This document shows positions 1 through 4,957 of a DNA stretch of 4,957 nucleotides, one piece after another; within the stretch, counting starts at the first letter, position 1; the number at the start of each line of letters is the position of its first letter. The translations under genes were made by a program, and so were the position numbers. The notes under the pieces were generated by a model that was given only the letters and a program-made list of their open reading frames with translations, was not told the DNA's origin and made no database searches. Location: the NCBI GenBank assembly GCA_000004695.1, contig CH709151.1:1-4957 (forward strand). The letters are read 5' to 3'. The stretch is from Dictyostelium discoideum. Lineage: Eukaryota.

Positions 1-408
1 GCGACGTTCACTTGGAAGTTAGATGGAAAGTTGAATACTTTATTCAATTCGGATATCTCATCTTTCTTGAGGATACATTCTTCTTCGACGAGTAAACCTT
101 GATTGTTTACCATATGTTTGTACTGACCAAGTAAAGTATCGGATAATTGATAATCGGTTGGAACATCGACATTGTTACTTGATTCATCATCACTTTGTTC
201 ATTCTCGGTGTCAGAGTTATCATGAGAAGGTTGGTTATGTGAATTGGTATTAGATGAGAACATAGGTTCTTTCATGAATCTTGTAAAGGCTAAAGAAAGG
301 TTGTTGATTTGATCCTCCATTGATTTCATTCTTAAATCAAAGGATTCAGCGCTATTAGAGGCAGAGGTACTACTCGAGGTATAATTATTATTAACAGGGG
401 TAGACATA
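1..408 (-). CDS. DIRS-1-type retrotransposon ORF1 (putative GAG-like protein), N-terminal 136 codons of copy A; partial, runs off window start
   Basis: The reverse complement of 1..408 translates uninterrupted as MSTPVNNNYTSSSTSASNSAESFDLRMKSMEDQINNLSLAFTRFMKEPMFSSNTNSHNQPSHDNSDTENEQSDDESSNNVDVPTDYQLSDTLLGQYKHMVNNQGLLVEEECILKKDEISELNKVFNFPSNFQVNVA. This is near-identical to the N-terminus of the intact 335-aa ORF at 3223..4230. Differences are a 3-bp indel and a few substitutions clustered in the first 10 codons and around codons 58-59. The ATG is at 408..406 on the minus strand. Confidence 0.8.
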
Positions 409-862
409 TTTTATTGTTGATATCTAAAATTATAATGGGAGAAAAATAATAATATTAAAAATTAATAAAGAGAAATAATTATTTGTATAAAATTTGTGTG
501 TGTGTGTATCTTAAATATATATAGGAGGAATTCCCAAATAAAATAAATCAAATTGTTTTAAGTTTTTAGTGCCACTATTTATACCGTTTTTATTTTCTTA
601 AAAATTTCGCAAAACTCAAAAAAATAAGGGTTTTCGACCCTTCACAACTTTGTGCATTGTGTCGGGTTCGGAATTTTTCAGTTTTTCGACCTTGCGGTAA
701 TGATCCCGTCATTGTGCCGGTTCGAAATTTTTTACTTTTCTTTCGAAAATTTTTTATTCTTCGAATGTTCTAGAACATTCTAAAAAATTATCTTAAATAT
801 TGGGAAATTCAAATAAATAAATGTTATTCATAATATATATATATATATATGATAATATAAAT
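409..862 (-). repeat. Left inverted-terminal-repeat/5' leader region of DIRS-1 copy A
   Basis: Non-coding AT-rich leader between the element terminus and the ORF1 ATG. It contains GAAnnTTC heat-shock arrays, a (TG)6-7 tract at 495..507, a TATA-like tatttatac (reverse complement) at ~571..583, and an (AT)n run at 828..848. It is mirrored in 2775..3222. Confidence 0.7.
757..780. promoter_or_regulatory. Heat-shock element: perfect alternating TTC/GAA array (ttcTTCGAAtgTTCtaGAAcaTTC) in the copy A leader
   Basis: The sequence shows at least four contiguous inverted nGAAn units with 2-bp spacing, the canonical HSE architecture. DIRS-1 is known to be heat-shock inducible from its ITR. Further TTCGAA / TTCnnGAA units lie at 721..727 and 743..748. 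Confidence 0.6.
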
Positions 863-1054
863 GATTGAAAGGAACTCTCTATCACCTATGCTGTACCTCT
901 TTTGAGTGTCAGTAAGTTTTCTACTGTGGAACCAAATGACTTTGAATTTATCACCTTGAATTTGATATAATACACCTGATAATGCTTTATCACTAACATC
1001 ACAATACAAGTGAAAACTACCCTTTTCAGAAGTTCCGTTTAAAAAATGTTGCAT
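863..1054 (-). pseudogene. Fragment of an LTR-retroelement-type (Ty3/gypsy, DIRS or BEL-like) RNase H domain; truncated at both ends
   Basis: The minus-strand ORF 824..1054 reads MQHFLNGTSEKGSFHLYCDVSDKALSGVLYQIQGDKFKVIWFHSRKLTDTQKRYSIGDREFLSI. It carries the canonical RNase H motifs of retroviral/LTR-type Pol proteins: (Y/F)-x-D-A/V-S-D-x-x-x-G-x-V-L-x-Q, then h-x-(F/Y)-x-S-R-K-L-x-x-x-E/Q-x-x-Y-S-x-x-(E/D)-(K/R)-E-x-L-x-I. The trailing IIYIIIYIYIYYE is readthrough into the (AT)n of the DIRS terminus. A stop lies 11 codons upstream of the Met, inside the tRNA-like sequence, so this is an orphan internal fragment. Confidence 0.55.
1041..1046 (-). terminator. Oligo(T)6 RNA polymerase III terminator immediately 3' of the tRNA-like unit
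   Basis: aaaaaa at 1041..1046 on the plus strand gives a T6 run on the minus strand, one nucleotide after the predicted discriminator base. Confidence 0.45.
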
Positions 1055-1119
1055 ATGGGAATCGAACCCGTGACCTCTTACATTCTAAGCTATCTATCTA
1101 CCATATGAGCTAAATAAGC
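1047..1119 (-). tRNA. tRNA-like Pol III unit (probable degenerate tRNA gene or pseudogene; anticodon not assignable)
   Basis: The minus strand reads GCTTATTTAGCTCATATGGTAGATAGATAGCTTAGAATGTAAGAGGTCACGGGTTCGATTCCCATATGCAACA. Residues 8-19 form a good A box (TAGCTCAtaTGG versus TRGCnnAGTGG). Residues 52-62 form a perfect B box (GGTTCGATTCC). An AGGTC variable-loop signature is present, the T-arm pairs ACGGG with CCCAT (4 of 5 pairs), and the overall length is a canonical 73 nt. TTTTTT follows directly. However, the 5' acceptor half (GCTTATT) cannot pair with the 3' half (ATGCAAC), no 5-bp anticodon stem forms, and (TAGA)3 slippage sits in the D-arm. Confidence 0.4.
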
Positions 1120-1167
1120 TTTGATTATTTTTCATTATTAATAGCTGAAATATTAATGTAAAAAAAG

Positions 1168-1234
1168 TGAGTAAGAAAAAAAACATCAACAACAACAACA
1201 TTTTTCATATAAAAAAAAGACTTAAAAATAAAAT
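1168..1234 (+). repeat. Direct repeat copy 1 (tgAGTAAGAAAAAAAACATCAACAACAACAACATTTTTCATATAAAAAAAAGACTTAAAAAT); putative leader (A-module-like) repeat of a TRE5-type element
   Basis: About 60 bp is near-identical to 1345..1431. It starts 49-51 bp upstream of the 5' end (1119) of the tRNA-like unit. Confidence 0.7.
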
Positions 1235-1300
1235 AAAATACACAAAGAGTAAATCATTGTACTTCTTTATTTTATTGTAATTTATTTTTTCTTTTTTTTT

Positions 1301-1325
1301 GAAAATTTTGCGAAGCAAAATTTTC
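1301..1325. repeat. Perfect 11-bp stem / 3-nt loop hairpin (gaaaattttgc gaa gcaaaattttc) between the two direct repeats
   Basis: Exact reverse-complement arms are read directly from the sequence. Confidence 0.5.
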
Positions 1326-1344
1326 AAAAAAAAGGAAAAAATAA

Positions 1345-1431
1345 TCAGTAAGAAAAAAAACATCAACAACAACAACATTTTTTATTTGATTATTTCATTT
1401 TTCATATAAAAAAAAGACTTGAAAAAATTAA
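1345..1431 (+). repeat. Direct repeat copy 2, with a ~20-bp internal insertion/duplication (ttatttgattatttcattt)
   Basis: Same sequence as 1168..1234, 177 bp further on. With the insertion, the repeat period is ~178-199 bp. Confidence 0.7.
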
Positions 1432-1613
1432 ATCTCTATACGTATCTAGTAATACAATAGTAATAGTTGCAAATCAGGATGGACAGGAGTTCACACCGAC
1501 AGCATTCAAGTAGTTAGGGATGCTAGTAATTCATTCAAACAAAAATAAAAAATTCCACTATTATTAGTATTACATCAAAATTTCCAGTTGATCACAAAGA
1601 ATATCTCACAACA

Positions 1614-2378
1614 ATGTCCACTGAGTTAAAAAATAAATTCATCAAATGTGAACCAGGAATCAACCATTCTACCTTTACCTTTATCGGAGTAAACACTGAA
1701 TGGGAACCAGAATCTAAAATAAAAGCACTTAACGACTTCACTGTTATAAATATCACTAAATGGAAAATTTTAAAATATAAAGAATCTATGGCCAAAGAAG
1801 AAAAAACCAATGAAAAACAAACATCCCAATCAACACAACAAACACATCAAACTCAACCTAATCAACATACTGAACAAGTTCAAATAATCCAAAATAATAT
1901 AAAAAATTTAACCGAACAAGAGCTAGCTGAATTAATTTTCAACAACCCACAAGAGGCTGAACAAGAAAAAGAAATCATTAAGGAGTTCCAACAACAAAAA
2001 ATTCAAAACCAAAACAAACAAGAAACAAATAATAGTGACAATACATCTTTCACCTCTCCACCCAAAGATAAAGATGAACCATCACTCAATTTAAGTTCTC
2101 AATTCGAAGTTAGCATTTCTACTCAAGAAATAAACACTATGCTTAATACTGACTTTATCTTTGATGACTCTTCACCAATACCAAATAAATTATTAGAGCT
2201 GATTTCACCTGAACCAATTGTTTTTAGCATCAGAGAATTGGATTCTCCAACTAAAGATAACATACTAAATGAACTACTATATCAACCAGAACAATCAATT
2301 TATGTTCCTCCTCCTCCTCCCTCCTCCCCCTCCACCCCAATTAAACAAACCAAGCAGACTAACAAAAATAAGTGGTAG
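1614..2378 (+). CDS. Hypothetical N/Q/P-rich protein, probably ORF1 of the TRE5-like element; terminates prematurely relative to a +1-frame continuation (frameshift in a CCT/poly-Pro tract)
   Basis: A 254-aa ORF with amoeba-style codon usage. It has a structured N-terminus (MSTELKNKFIKCEPGINHSTFTFIGVNTEWEPESKIKALNDFTVINITKWKILKY) followed by Q/N/T-rich low complexity and a PPPPPSSPSTP tract. A stop occurs 40 nt after the cctcctcctcctccctcctccccctccacccc run at 2306..2337. Confidence 0.55.
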   Translation: MSTELKNKFIKCEPGINHSTFTFIGVNTEWEPESKIKALNDFTVINITKWKILKYKESMAKEEKTNEKQTSQSTQQTHQTQPNQHTEQVQIIQNNIKNLTEQELAELIFNNPQEAEQEKEIIKEFQQQKIQNQNKQETNNSDNTSFTSPPKDKDEPSLNLSSQFEVSISTQEINTMLNTDFIFDDSSPIPNKLLELISPEPIVFSIRELDSPTKDNILNELLYQPEQSIYVPPPPPSSPSTPIKQTKQTNKNKW

Positions 2379-2583
2379 ACCAAAATTCAACATTAAACAA
2401 AAAAACATTAAAACGATCGAAGAAAATATAGAGGAACACCTCAAAGATTCTTTAAATAACTCATCAGAAACAATATCAACAAAGAGAAAATACCAGGAGG
2501 AGCCAAATCAAGAGAATGACCTCGAACAAATATCCACAATTATGAACAACAATTTACAAAAACTTATCAATCTCACTAACTAA
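2269..2583 (+). CDS. Probable C-terminal continuation of the same ORF1 in the +1 frame (real coding likely only downstream of the poly-Pro tract, ~2340..2583); the N-terminal MNYYINQNNQFMFLLLL part is out-of-frame overlap
   Basis: Past the proline tract the +1 frame stays open and reads LNKPSRLTKISGRPKFNIKQKNIKTIEENIEEHLKDSLNNSSETISTKRKYQEEPNQENDLEQISTIMNNNLQKLINLTN. It ends exactly at the TAATG overlap with the endonuclease-like ORF start, which argues it is genuine coding sequence displaced by a 1-nt indel. Confidence 0.4.
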   Translation: MNYYINQNNQFMFLLLLPPPPPPQLNKPSRLTKISGRPKFNIKQKNIKTIEENIEEHLKDSLNNSSETISTKRKYQEEPNQENDLEQISTIMNNNLQKLINLTN

Positions 2584-2699
2584 TGAACACAATTAAGATA
2601 GCAATCTGGAACGCCCAAGGACACAGCAAAGAAAAATGCACCTTTAAAGCCAATTTAAAGCAAATTCAATTTAAATTTGCTTTAAATTGGCTTTAAATT
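2583..2699 (+). pseudogene. Truncated 5' remnant of a non-LTR ORF2 (endonuclease-domain N-terminal motif); about 20 meaningful codons, then the frame runs into hairpin repeats
   Basis: It translates as MNTIKIAIWNAQGHSKEKCTFKANLKQIQFKFALNWL*. The I-A-I-W-N-x-x-G segment matches the conserved first motif of the exonuclease-endonuclease-phosphatase domain. From ~2640 the sequence is a palindromic minisatellite, so the domain is deleted. Confidence 0.35.
2643..2697. repeat. Perfect 24-bp inverted repeat (tttaaagccaatttaaagcaaatt / aatttgctttaaattggctttaaa) with a 7-nt loop; built from tandem tttaaagc units
   Basis: Arms 2643..2666 and 2674..2697 are exact reverse complements, counted base by base. 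The loop is caattta at 2667..2673. Confidence 0.8.
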
Positions 2700-2733
2700 T
2701 GCTTTTTAAAAAGGTGATTTTAAAGATATTTTT

Positions 2734-2766
2734 AAGGTCGTTTAAAATTACATTAAAAATGACCTT
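2734..2766. repeat. Second hairpin (aaggtcgttt ... aaatgacctt): 10-bp stem with one G-T mismatch, 13-nt loop
   Basis: Read from the sequence. It lies 36 bp after the first hairpin and 8 bp before the DIRS copy B terminus. Confidence 0.5.
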
Positions 2767-2855
2767 TTAAATTTATTTATATTATCATATATATATATAT
2801 ATTATGAATAACATTTATTTATTTGAATTTCCCAAATATTTAAGATAATTTTTTA

Positions 2856-2879
2856 GAATGTTCTAGAACATTCGAAGAA
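2856..2879. promoter_or_regulatory. Heat-shock element array (GAAtgTTCtaGAAcaTTCGAAGAA) in the copy B leader
   Basis: Alternating GAA/TTC units at 2-bp spacing. This is the counterpart of 757..780. Confidence 0.6.
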
Positions 2880-3048
2880 TAAAAAATTTTCGAAAGAAAA
2901 GTAAAAATTTCGAACCGGCACAATGACGCGATAATTGCGCAAGGTCGAAAAACTGAAAAATTCCGAACCGACACTATGCACAAATTTGTGAAGGGTCGAA
3001 AACTCTTATTTTTTTGAGTTTTGCGAAATTTTTAAGAAAATAAAAACG

Positions 3049-3056
3049 TATAAATA
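3049..3056 (+). promoter_or_regulatory. TATA box (tataaata) ~170 bp upstream of the ORF1 ATG
   Basis: A canonical TATAAATA lies ~170 bp downstream of the HSE array in a slightly GC-richer context (cgtataaatagtggcac). The inverted counterpart is at ~571..583. Confidence 0.4.
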
Positions 3057-3222
3057 GTGGCACTAAAAACTAAAACAATTTGATTTATTTTATTTGGGAA
3101 TTCCTCCTATATATATTTAAGATACACACACACACAAATTTTATACAAATAATTATTTCTCTTTATTAATTTTTATTATTATTTTTTTCTCATATTATAA
3201 TTTTAGATATCAACAATAAAAT

Positions 3223-4230
3223 ATGTCTACCACTGTTAATAATAACGAAGCCTCTAGTAGTAGTACCTCTGCCTCTAATAGCGCTGAATCCTTTGATTTA
3301 AGAATGAAATCAATGGAAGATCAAATCAACAACCTTTCCTTAGCCTTTACAAGATTCATGAAAGAACCTATGTTCTCTTCTAATACCAATTCAAGTAGCC
3401 AACCTTCTCATGATAACTCTGACACCGAGAATGAACAAAGTGAAGATGAATCAAGTAACAATGTCGATGTTCCAACCGATTATCAATTATCCGATACCTT
3501 ACTTGGTCAGTACAAACATATGGTAAACAATCAAGGTTTACTCGTCGAAGAAGAATGTATCCTCAAGAAAGATGAGATATCCGAATTGAATAAAGTATTC
3601 AACTTTCCATCTAACTTCCAAGTGAATGTCGCTCCATTCGGTACACCTGAAGGTATTACTGTATCATCCAACGTCAAGAACAATGATACTGACTTGTTGA
3701 TTGTCGAAAAGCGAATCAACGATAGCTTGAAACCTTTGCTTCTCATGTCAAGTATGTTATCATCTGATAGCTCTAATGTCGATGTAGAACTTATTAGTTA
3801 CTTAACTCAGAGTGCAATCGTCTTAGCCGTTAATGCTCAAGCATCGCTTAGTCGTGTCCGTCGTAACAACATCGCTAAAGAAATCTATGGTTCTGAAGTA
3901 CTCTTACCAATTAAGATCAAGGATACACCAAAGATGTTTGATGAAACTGAAACTGAACGTGTAAGAAAGCTAGCCAAGTCAATCAGAAAGAACAACGAAG
4001 CTAAACAATCATTGTTAAAATTGAATTATCATTCCAAGTCCAATGTCAAGAAATCAGTTAACTCAAGTGGTAATAACACTACAGGAAACAGTAGTAATAG
4101 TAAATCCAGTAGTGGGAGTAATGGCCGATCTAACAACTTCAATGGATCACCAAGTAATGTTGCATCAGGTAGCAACAATACCAAGTCTGCCAACGGTACC
4201 AACAACCGTTTTCAGAAGAACAAGAAGTAA
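3223..4230 (+). CDS. DIRS-1-type ORF1 (putative GAG-like protein), complete, 335 aa
   Basis: An intact ORF that begins directly after the leader. It is S/N-rich at both ends with a unique central region. The minus-strand ORF at window positions 1..408 reproduces its N-terminus. Confidence 0.85.
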   Translation: MSTTVNNNEASSSSTSASNSAESFDLRMKSMEDQINNLSLAFTRFMKEPMFSSNTNSSSQPSHDNSDTENEQSEDESSNNVDVPTDYQLSDTLLGQYKHMVNNQGLLVEEECILKKDEISELNKVFNFPSNFQVNVAPFGTPEGITVSSNVKNNDTDLLIVEKRINDSLKPLLLMSSMLSSDSSNVDVELISYLTQSAIVLAVNAQASLSRVRRNNIAKEIYGSEVLLPIKIKDTPKMFDETETERVRKLAKSIRKNNEAKQSLLKLNYHSKSNVKKSVNSSGNNTTGNSSNSKSSSGSNGRSNNFNGSPSNVASGSNNTKSANGTNNRFQKNKK

Positions 4231-4957
4231 ACTTACCAGTAGGTGGACGTCTGTTCCACCACAAACAAGTTTGGAAAGAATTGGGTCTTCCAAACTTTTG
4301 TCAAGAGTTCGTAAATGGATTAAAAATCCATCTGCTTCCAAATTTCAAGCCGATGCTAAACCCAATTCCGATTTCAATTCCGGAGGGTCCGAAATCAGAT
4401 TGCATCACAAAGGAAGTACAAGACTTGTTATTAGACGATGCCATCGAACAAGTACTTCCAAACCGTTATTCAAAGCGCGTTTTTTACTCCAACGTGTTTA
4501 CGGTTCCAAAACCTGGAACGAATCTACATCGTCCAGTTCTAGATTTAAAAAGGTTAAACACTTACATCAACAACCAATCATTCAAGATGGAAGGAATCAA
4601 GAATCTACCATCAATGGTCAAACAAGGTTATTACATGGTAAAACTCGATATCAAGAAAGCCTACCTCCACGTATTAGTAGATCCACAATACAGAGACTTA
4701 TTCCGCTTCGTGTGGAAAGGTTCGCACTACCGTTGGAAAACAATGCCGTTCGGGCTATCGACAGCTCCTCGTATCTTTACAATGCTGTTAAGACCTGTAC
4801 TTCGAATGTTGAGAGATATCAAGGTATCCGTCATCGCTTACTTGGACGATCTATTAATCGTAGGTTCAACAAAAGAAGAATGTTTATCCAACTTCAAAAA
4901 GACAATGGAATTACTTGTCAAACTAGGTTTCAAGTTAAACCTAGAAAAGAGTGTTCT
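4173..4957 (+). CDS. DIRS-1-type ORF2 N-terminal part: reverse transcriptase (open in frame 3 from 4173; first in-frame ATG at 4353); partial at window end
   Basis: The frame-3 translation contains VFTVPKPGTNLHRPVLDLKRLN, YYMVKLDIKKAYLHV, KTMPFGLSTAPRIFT and VIAYLDDLLIVG. These are RT motifs 1/2, A, B and C (YLDD). The open frame overlaps the ORF1 stop by 57 nt. It is missing from the supplied ORF track because it has no stop inside the window. Confidence 0.8.

Follow-up and report, generated by a model that had tools for sequence, protein, structure and literature searches.

Does a tRNA-like unit lying between retrotransposon pieces mark a site to which Pol III directed several insertions, and did it seed the DIRS-1 copies found on either side of it? 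The window, i.e. the whole stretch of DNA analysed here, is an entire unplaced AX4 contig of Dictyostelium discoideum (4,957 bp) composed of repeats throughout. A first-pass annotation had described five pieces, and all of them were found in the order and on the strands claimed. It had further taken the spacer between the two DIRS-1 copies as wholly non-host, which is wrong: 142 bp (1025-1166) are a tRNA relic with its own flanks. We consider it likely that the locus is a relic tRNA gene with a canonical TRE5 insertion, buried in a DIRS-1/Skipper repeat cluster in which the DIRS-1 copies came later. The boundaries, identities, spacing and orientation of the pieces, as well as the cutting of older elements by both DIRS-1 copies, are direct observations. 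The pieces are as follows:

1-862, minus strand: DIRS-1 copy A (left terminal repeat 408-862; 5' part of ORF1 from 407 to 3, 135 codons; exits the contig end)
860-1024, minus strand: pol fragment assigned to Skipper-1, N-terminal part of RNase H, 165 bp (Pfam RT_RNaseH_2, E=4e-16)
1025-1046, minus strand: tRNA 3' flank with a T6 Pol III terminator at 1041-1046, read from the sequence
1047-1119, minus strand: tRNA-derived relic, 73 nt (A box 1101-1112, B box 1058-1068, anticodon loop TTAGAAT)
1120-1166, no strand: A+T-rich spacer, 47 bp, from tRNA position 1 to the TRE5 5' end
1167-1347, plus strand: TRE5 5' A-module copy 1, ~180 bp, 20 bp of the 200-bp unit being deleted (direct repeat spacing 177)
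1348-1424, plus strand: second A-module, incomplete; a deletion joins it to ORF1 near codon 33
1425-2583, plus strand: TRE5 ORF1 remnant with several frameshifts and an internal deletion of roughly 40 codons
2583-2620, plus strand: first 12-13 codons of ORF2 (MNTIKIAIWNAQG), the start overlapping the ORF1 stop (TAATG)
2621-2777, plus strand: TRE5 3' untranslated module, hairpin-rich (hairpin 2633-2707), truncated by DIRS-1 copy B
2775-4957, plus strand: DIRS-1 copy B (left terminal repeat 2775-3222; ORF1 3223-4230; RT ORF from 4236; exits the contig end)

The tRNA-like unit carries the parts of a Pol III promoter, namely an A box and a B box (TAGCTCATATGG, GGTTCGATTCC), with T6 directly after position 73. 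An A box followed after 25-45 nt by a B box occurs once, against 0.00 occurrences expected by chance (0.04 for the B box by itself), and the relic agrees with GTCnnnnGTTCRAnYC, which PMC3159450 quotes as the B-box consensus of D. discoideum. The unit had been called degenerate, and this holds: 12 of 21 cloverleaf pairs can form, ARAGORN made zero tRNA calls over it, Rfam returned sub-threshold clan matches alone (7-12 bits) and the z-score of its fold is -0.09. The only similar sequence found was another tRNA-like unit in contig L006 (82% identity over 44 nt), and a metagenome scan with the tRNA-like core gave 0 matches. The idea that the relic is an internal part of an element was rejected, as Skipper homology stops at 1024 and TRE5 begins at 1167. 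Was the unit ever a tRNA gene? It might instead have been an A/B-box Pol III site like the TRE5-A targets on the extrachromosomal rDNA palindrome, considering that TRE5-A integrates at A/B-box arrangements without tRNA context (PMC5391098) and that no cloverleaf can form in the unit. We regard this as exceedingly improbable in view of a length of exactly 73 nt, of D-loop, anticodon-loop (U33, purine 37), variable-loop and T-loop registers that are all tRNA-like and run into T6, and of the D. discoideum AlaAGC primer, which, aligned in the correct register, agrees with the relic at 19 of 24 positions, the best among 33 tRNA families. From this one 24-nt primer comparison, the ancestor of the relic was probably tRNA-Ala(AGC). 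For the relic itself we infer past Pol III activity.

Region 1167-2777 is, as judged from sequence, a dead, internally deleted TRE5-family non-LTR element. The first-pass annotation had named it TRE5-like, and it indeed aligns with two full-length APE+RT elements (L004 and L005), whose 5' ends are matched by A-module copy 1 from the first bases. TRE5 elements have two ORFs, the second of which encodes an APE endonuclease, an RT and a zinc finger; in the L004 relative, ORF2 contains RVT_1 (E=4e-32) and a weak Exo_endo_phos match under the Pfam cut-off (E=6e-4). The dead copy has one and a half A-modules and is devoid of the B-module region and the first ~32 ORF1 codons. Its A-module/ORF1 junction is spanned by independent Logan contigs (L001-L003), and 1391-2650 recurs in Logan assemblies at 99.5% identity in at least 12 samples. 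The longest open stretch of ORF1 (1614-2378) is DDB_G0294178, the C-terminal piece (2347-2583) lies in a different frame, and ORF1 matches the ORF1 proteins of the full-length tRNA-associated elements at 66% (P0002) and 46% (P0003). Past 2620, the last position that aligns with the beginning of ORF2 in L004 and L005, ~3.3 kb of ORF2 are deleted. Another TRE5 copy in L004 has a 3' module that is 82% identical and runs ~170 bp further; in the window the module ends at the start of DIRS-1 copy B, which took away the 3' end where the poly(A) tail and target-site duplication of a TRE5 element belong. Rfam matches of miRNA type at 1284-1342 and 2632-2708 were dismissed, since they fall on A+T-rich palindromes that belong to the A-module and to the 3' module.

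The architecture resembles that of TRE5-A, -B and -C, especially the ORF2-deleted non-autonomous TRE5-A.2: the 5' end points towards a tRNA-type unit from ~48 bp upstream, the ~200-bp A-module is in tandem, and the start of ORF2 overlaps the end of ORF1. As in TRE5-A.2, ORF2 is mostly deleted, which joins the element to a hairpin-rich 3' module. Membership of the TRE5-A subfamily was rejected in a comparison covering TRE5-A only, since the TRE5-A ORF1 primers Rep-190, Rep-109Q and Rep-157Q match neither the window nor L004 or L005 (best 19/29). Unlike in TRE5-A, ORF1 is of another, low-copy type, found also in two full-length elements from a different isolate, and the related ORF1 has a residue other than Ile at position 10. 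The window copy further differs from TRE5-A.2 in having lost the B-module region, the start of ORF1 and its own 3' end, in carrying frameshifts and in lying beside a tRNA target that has decayed.

The TRE5 start (1167/1169) lies 47-49 bp from tRNA position 1 (1119), in agreement with the ~50 bp upstream of the tRNA 5' end given earlier. The two are arranged head-to-head, with the relic on the minus strand and TRE5 on the plus strand, diverging. The full-length relatives show the same orientation at 48 bp (L004) and 42 bp (L005) upstream of genuine tRNA genes, their neighbours being tRNA-Lys(UUU) and tRNA-Glu(UUC). In TRE5-A, such geometry is credited to an ORF1 protein that contacts TFIIIB, and an intact B box is required. 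[quoted passage not shown] Canonical distance and orientation together support the Pol III-type unit as the target of TRE5 integration.

The TRE5 copy is the one Pol III-directed insertion among the four elements at the locus, because the LTR-type piece is an internal Skipper-1 fragment and the DIRS-1 copies cut older elements at ATT. On the other side of the relic, the minus-strand RNase H fragment of LTR type described in the first-pass annotation is real, but its placement 0-8 bp past the terminator is not: Skipper-1 homology starts 16 bp past the T-run, i.e. 22 bp past the tRNA end, and the smaller figure arose because the reader's ORF extends into non-homologous sequence. In residue-by-residue comparison the piece is Skipper-1 and not Skipper-2, with 48 of 50 RNase H residues identical to the Dd_Skipper-1 line in the supplement of PMC5006619 (machine-read text), the Dd_Skipper-2 line being very different. 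Nucleotide homology covers 857-1024 (92% identity to a 930-aa RT-RNaseH-integrase ORF in L006), with no Skipper homology beyond 1024, where a non-canonical join leads to the tRNA 3' flank. At the left edge, DIRS-1 copy A cuts the fragment at 860-862, with AAT/ATT common to both sides. The piece thus shares with the Skipper-1 chromovirus a near-identical RNase H and co-occurrence with DIRS-1; it differs from an intact Skipper-1, which has LTRs, gag and an integrase chromodomain, in comprising 165 bp only, one end rearranged onto the tRNA flank and the other cut by DIRS-1. We know of no integrase reaction that can place an internal pol fragment beside a target. As Skipper-1 is a centromere-enriched family without tRNA preference (PMC5006619) and the piece is an internal pol fragment rather than an LTR end, it is not tRNA-placed.

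These observations bear on a more far-reaching reading, according to which a persistent Pol III landing pad gathered tRNA-directed insertions on both sides, was retained while the tRNA decayed and seeded the DIRS-1 cluster. The unit has an intact A box, B box and T-run despite 9 of 21 broken stem pairs, the distance of 22 bp lies within the 8-23 bp range reported for Dd_Skipper-2 (PMC5006619), and the DIRS/Skipper cluster of L006, from a sister lineage, contains another degenerate tRNA-like unit, immediately upstream of which lies an LTR element. However, the fragment belongs to the family without tRNA preference and possesses no LTR end, a tRNA-relative position is seen for the TRE5 copy only, the intact boxes carry an ascertainment bias, the unit having been noticed through them, and tRNA genes and TREs are nearly absent from published centromere assemblies (PMC2665215). 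We consider this reading highly unlikely. The suggestion that the unit is kept as a landmark found no support, the intact boxes being the very feature that drew notice; a rough neutral-decay estimate for them gives p~0.02 with ascertainment bias left aside. It is very doubtful that the relic still binds TFIIIC/TFIIIB within centromeric heterochromatin and that its A and B boxes stay intact for this reason. If it did, it could act as a chromatin boundary or as a site where TRE5 elements continue to land, comparable to the A/B-box sites of the rDNA palindrome, which are independent of tRNA genes. Seeding of DIRS-1 clusters at tRNA havens is likewise unsupported, and published data argue against it (PMC2665215).

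The two DIRS-1 arms (1-862 and 2775-3632) are inverted copies with 95.8% identity, and their left terminus ATTTATATTATCAT is identical in copies A and B and six others (n=8). Compared with the DIRS-1 copies of L007, copy A shows 96% identity (three copies) and copy B 99%. The RT ORF of copy B contains RVT_1 (E=1e-24), and the ORF1 homologues (n=207) come exclusively from Dictyostelium. In DIRS-1, ORF1 precedes an RT/RNase H/methyltransferase ORF and a tyrosine recombinase ORF, an order represented by ORF1 and RVT_1 in the window and by the remaining domains (RNase H, Dam and Phage_integrase) in the sister copies of L007 and L008, which are 97-99% identical. Of the inverted terminal repeats and the internal complementary region of DIRS-1, the window contains the left terminal repeat of each copy. 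Both copies are joined by their exact left terminus within older elements, namely the Skipper-1 RNase H region and the TRE5 3' module, and the ATT at these joins is also present in the uninterrupted Skipper and TRE5 relatives. The trinucleotide model cited in PMC7192593 would predict the ATT common to both joins. These joins suggest that the copies arrived by insertion and not by recombination among DIRS copies; both right ends, where the other halves of Skipper and TRE5 are expected, lie outside the window. As in centromeric clusters, DIRS-1 ends exactly at its left terminus, resembles other copies at 96-99% identity in ORF1 and RT, and sits inside other transposons with no target duplication visible. 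As differences, the targets are Skipper-1 and a TRE5 element instead of a further DIRS-1 copy, and only the 5' parts of the two copies are in the window. The earlier picture of a Pol III-directed hotspot later overrun by DIRS-1 therefore stands for TRE5 targeting and for the late DIRS-1 copies; several tRNA-positioned elements it does not have, the LTR piece being Skipper-1.

Could the arrangement have arisen in the assembly, by joining reads of separate repeat loci such that DIRS-1 copies, Skipper piece and tRNA/TRE5 are not genomic neighbours? The contig is unplaced and contains repeats only, Logan contigs confirm 1391-2650 only, and a mis-join could have passed through the repeated A-module (1167-1390). 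The four outer junctions were sought in other assemblies and none was found. Exact-product look-ups for the window ORFs that span or flank junctions (824-1054, 1094-1201, 1205-1378 and DIRS-1 ORF1) gave no matches; newer D. discoideum assemblies, searched via DIRS-1 ORF1 variants, yielded no orthologous locus, the private residues of copies A and B occurring in no listed protein; and next to the closest DIRS-1 copy (P0007/L007) spacer homology is absent. Against an assembly artefact, the junctions are biologically precise, with a canonical 47-49 bp between TRE5 and tRNA and DIRS-1 joins at the exact terminus and target ATT. Mis-joins arise within shared repeats rather than at unique element ends, and the three left junctions span about 310 bp, which one Sanger read could cover. 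A chimeric contig is hence unlikely.

Under the favoured reading of a relic tRNA gene with a TRE5 insertion, a TRE5-family element would have integrated 47-49 bp upstream while the tRNA gene was still bound by Pol III factors. This copy would then have died, ORF1 becoming frameshifted and ORF2 cut to 13 codons joined to the 3' module. By rearrangement, not integration, the internal Skipper-1 pol piece may have been joined onto the tRNA 3' flank; the relative order of the Skipper and TRE5 events given here is our inference. Two different DIRS-1 copies would subsequently have entered Skipper-1 in its RNase H region and TRE5 in its 3' module, each at a target ATT, so that DIRS-1 5' ends face the relic from both sides, and the tRNA itself would have decayed past folding.

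The assembled D. discoideum centromeres contain four tRNA genes, two on chromosome 1 and two on chromosome 2 against none on chromosome 3, and three of these genes are flagged as pseudogenes (PMC2665215); Glockner and Heidel (2009) found a single TRE adjoining DIRS, without a tRNA beside it (PMC2665215). The relic shares with the centromeric tRNA pseudogenes of that study the nature of a non-functional tRNA-derived unit within a DIRS-rich repeat region. It differs from the DIRS-adjacent TRE reported there in that TRE5 retains its decayed target at canonical distance, a target missed by tRNA finders. As a transposon pile-up the locus is ordinary and of a type already understood; every component in it is of known kind, and the locus leaves the current understanding of these elements unchanged. 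What it contributes is two clean DIRS-1 junctions at ATT within non-DIRS targets, the recognition of the AX4 gene model DDB_G0294178, annotated as 'hypothetical protein', as a TRE5 ORF1 remnant, and a concrete case of a tRNA-targeted TRE5 still beside its decayed target inside a DIRS-1/Skipper repeat cluster. This suggests that such TRE5 targets may escape detection, having decayed below the thresholds of tRNA finders.

Reading the minus strand from 1119 to 1047 gives GCTTATTTAGCTCATATGGTAGATAGATAGCTTAGAATGTAAGAGGTCACGGGTTCGATTCCCATATGCAACA, followed by TTTTTT. Length and loop registers match a class I tRNA, and both promoter boxes, A (TAGCTCATATGG) and B (GGTTCGATTCC), are intact and lie at the proper spacing, an arrangement that occurs once against 0.00 occurrences expected by chance (0.04 for the B box alone). 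Only 12 of 21 stem pairs are able to form, and shuffled sequence folds just as well; ARAGORN detected no tRNA, and Rfam returned clan hits of 7-12 bits only. Since AlaAGC was the best match among 33 family-specific tRNA primers (PMC5391098, S1 Table) with 19/24 positions in the correct register, followed by ThrAGU with 16/24, the relic most probably derives from a tRNA-Ala(AGC) gene that has decayed and now has AGA in place of the anticodon.

Features of the window and positions of DIRS-1 left ends
1-862, minus strand: DIRS-1 copy A
860-1024, minus strand: Skipper-1 fragment
1047-1119, minus strand: tRNA relic
1167-2777, plus strand: TRE5-family element
1301-1325: near-perfect A+T-rich palindrome in the TRE5 A-module, GAAAATTTTGCGAAGCAAAATTTTC, conserved in the TRE5-type elements at L004 and L005 (another D. 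discoideum isolate)
1614-2378: DDB_G0294178, 254-aa ORF, "hypothetical protein" in AX4, really a TRE5 ORF1 remnant
2633-2707: near-perfect A+T-rich palindrome in the 3' module, 37-nt arms
2775-4957, plus strand: DIRS-1 copy B, 335-aa ORF1 and RT (RVT_1, E=1e-24)
3223-4957: DDB_G0294180, "hypothetical protein" in AX4 on the same contig, really a DIRS-1 ORF1+RT fusion model
860-862 and 2775-2777 (window); 3805, 16643 and 18760 (L006, a D. cf. discoideum DIRS-1/Skipper cluster); 1088, 3550 and 7515 (L007, a DIRS-1 locus in a chromosome-scale assembly): DIRS-1 left ends with ATTTATATTATCAT

The ORF1 remnant shares 66% and 46% identity with two proteins from a different D. discoideum isolate, each encoded by a full-length element of ~5.7 kb that comprises ORF1 and an ORF2 for endonuclease and RT; the similarity of 1168..2773 to a non-LTR element proposed in the first-pass annotation is thereby borne out. 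Both full-length elements adjoin a true tRNA on the minus strand, in one case Lys-UUU at a distance of 48 bp and in the other Glu-UUC at 42 bp. Alignment of the window with these two elements starts right at their 5' ends, GAGTAA(G)AAAAAAAACATCAAC, which places the element start at 1167-1169, upstream of the relic and diverging from it, with 47-49 bp between the element and tRNA position 1, as had been estimated (~50 bp). The 5' end of such elements always faces the tRNA 5' end (PMC5391098) and TRE5 distances to the tRNA range from 34 to 95 bp (PMC5006619 Table 1). The geometry is thus canonical, and there is good support for one insertion directed by Pol III. Primers for TRE5-A ORF1 gave no match, so that by ORF1 the subfamily is not TRE5-A.

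This TRE5-like copy is dead. It contains one A-module plus a partial second one, and the L004 and L005 elements likewise carry tandem 200-bp A-modules. The second A-module is fused by deletion to ORF1 at about codon 33, and ORF1 carries frameshifts and a ~40-codon deletion. The ORF2 start overlaps the ORF1 stop (TAATG); ORF2 ends after 12-13 codons, where a deletion of ~3.3 kb leads straight into the 3' module. This module shares 82% identity with its counterpart in a further TRE5 copy at L004, which extends ~170 bp further; in the window it ends at 2777, at the start of DIRS-1 copy B. The A-module (~200 bp; window 1167-1424, L004 5644-5912, L005 5425-5905) is 85-95% conserved and varies in tandem copy number (1.4, 1.3 and 2.4, respectively), and despite this conservation the three ORF1 proteins are only 46-66% identical. 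Sub-threshold Rfam miRNA hits at the two palindromes were rejected as spurious products of the palindromes themselves.

Segments 1-862 and 2775-3632 are inverted copies of one another (95.8% identity). The 207 homologues of DIRS-1 ORF1 come exclusively from Dictyostelium genomes, and relatives of the arms in a chromosome-scale assembly (96-99% identity) encode RT, RNase H, Dam methylase and Phage_integrase domains, which is the DIRS architecture. All eight DIRS-1 left ends inspected (two in the window, three each in L006 and L007) open with ATTTATATTATCAT; therefore 862 and 2775, where the window arms stop, are genuine ends of the element. Within the terminal repeat, the B-box-like strings GGTTCGGAATT and GGTTCGAAATT (665-675 and 718-728, mirrored in copy B) fall below the strict B-box consensus. 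Copy B interrupts the TRE5 3' module and copy A the RNase H region of Skipper-1; at both joins the uninterrupted relative has ATT exactly where the ATT of DIRS-1 begins. These joins would fit trinucleotide-guided integration of DIRS into non-DIRS targets by its recombinase (model cited in PMC7192593). Because DIRS-1 cuts both older elements, it is the latest layer, as the first-pass annotation held, and the tRNA/TRE5 unit and the Skipper-1 piece are older.

The window is a complete AX4 contig, which is unplaced and consists of repeats only, and the outer junctions of its elements had no match elsewhere in ORF-product look-ups, DIRS-1 ORF1 variants or a metagenome scan. Mis-joining of its pieces during assembly, for which the A-module repeat offers a possible route, is nevertheless improbable because the outer junctions are biologically precise. 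Segment 1391-2650 recurs in Logan assemblies from at least 12 samples at 99.5% identity. Logan contigs from other samples lack ACTA at 2575-2578, just before the ORF1 stop, a difference that looks like repeat slippage; otherwise they differ by just two substitutions over 1,256 bp.

On the other side of the relic, a minus-strand ORF (824-1054) contains RT_RNaseH_2 (Pfam, E=4e-16). The nucleotide match to a 930-aa RT-RNase H-integrase ORF from a D. cf. discoideum repeat cluster (92%) is confined to 857-1024, and the first ten codons of the window ORF are without homology to it. Compared with the published RNase H line of Dd_Skipper-1, residues HLYCDVSDKALSGVLYQIQGDKFKVIWFHSRKLTDTQKRYSIGDREFLSII agree at 48 of 50 positions, whereas the Dd_Skipper-2 line is quite unlike them (supplement of PMC5006619). 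Homology begins 16 bp beyond the T-run, i.e. 22 bp beyond the tRNA end, and not at the 0-8 bp first described, the one position to be corrected in an otherwise accurate description. The fragment is internal to pol and therefore arrived through rearrangement rather than targeted integration.

L006 also contains tRNA-like units. A perfect 16-nt direct repeat, CCATTGTAGTGGTATA (1338-1353 and 2586-2601), brackets a 1,232-bp insert with a T-run at its start and a minus-strand tRNA-like head (2520-2590) at its end; it resembles a retroposed unit that was inserted, with target-site duplication, within an LTR, and neither ARAGORN nor Rfam gave a hit there. A second degenerate unit (2630-2740; best primer match Ala-UGC, 17/25) has an external B-box-like GGTTCGATGCC ~35 bp downstream and a chromodomain-less (DGLT-A-type) LTR element ending ~20-35 bp upstream, all within the DIRS-1/Skipper cluster.

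The interpretation offered at first is thus partly right. Of the proposed Pol III-directed hotspot, the single directed TRE5 insertion stands; a multi-element hotspot is unsupported, because neither Skipper-1, which is enriched in centromeric clusters and has no tRNA preference (PMC5006619), nor DIRS-1 targets tRNA genes. The centromeres assembled in published work contain two tRNA genes on chromosome 1, two on chromosome 2 and none on chromosome 3, 3/4 of them flagged as pseudogenes, and the single DIRS-adjacent TRE reported lacks a tRNA (PMC2665215), which speaks against a general role of tRNA genes in seeding DIRS clusters. Nor does survival of the boxes amid broken stems speak for a relic kept as a landmark: a crude neutral estimate, in which all 16 conserved promoter positions are unaltered vs ~21% change in stem positions, gave p~0.02, which is no evidence of selection since these boxes were what drew attention to the relic. 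All components are known families acting as already described. The relic persists in a form missed by tRNA finders, which makes it a useful counter-example to the view that the tRNA was deleted.
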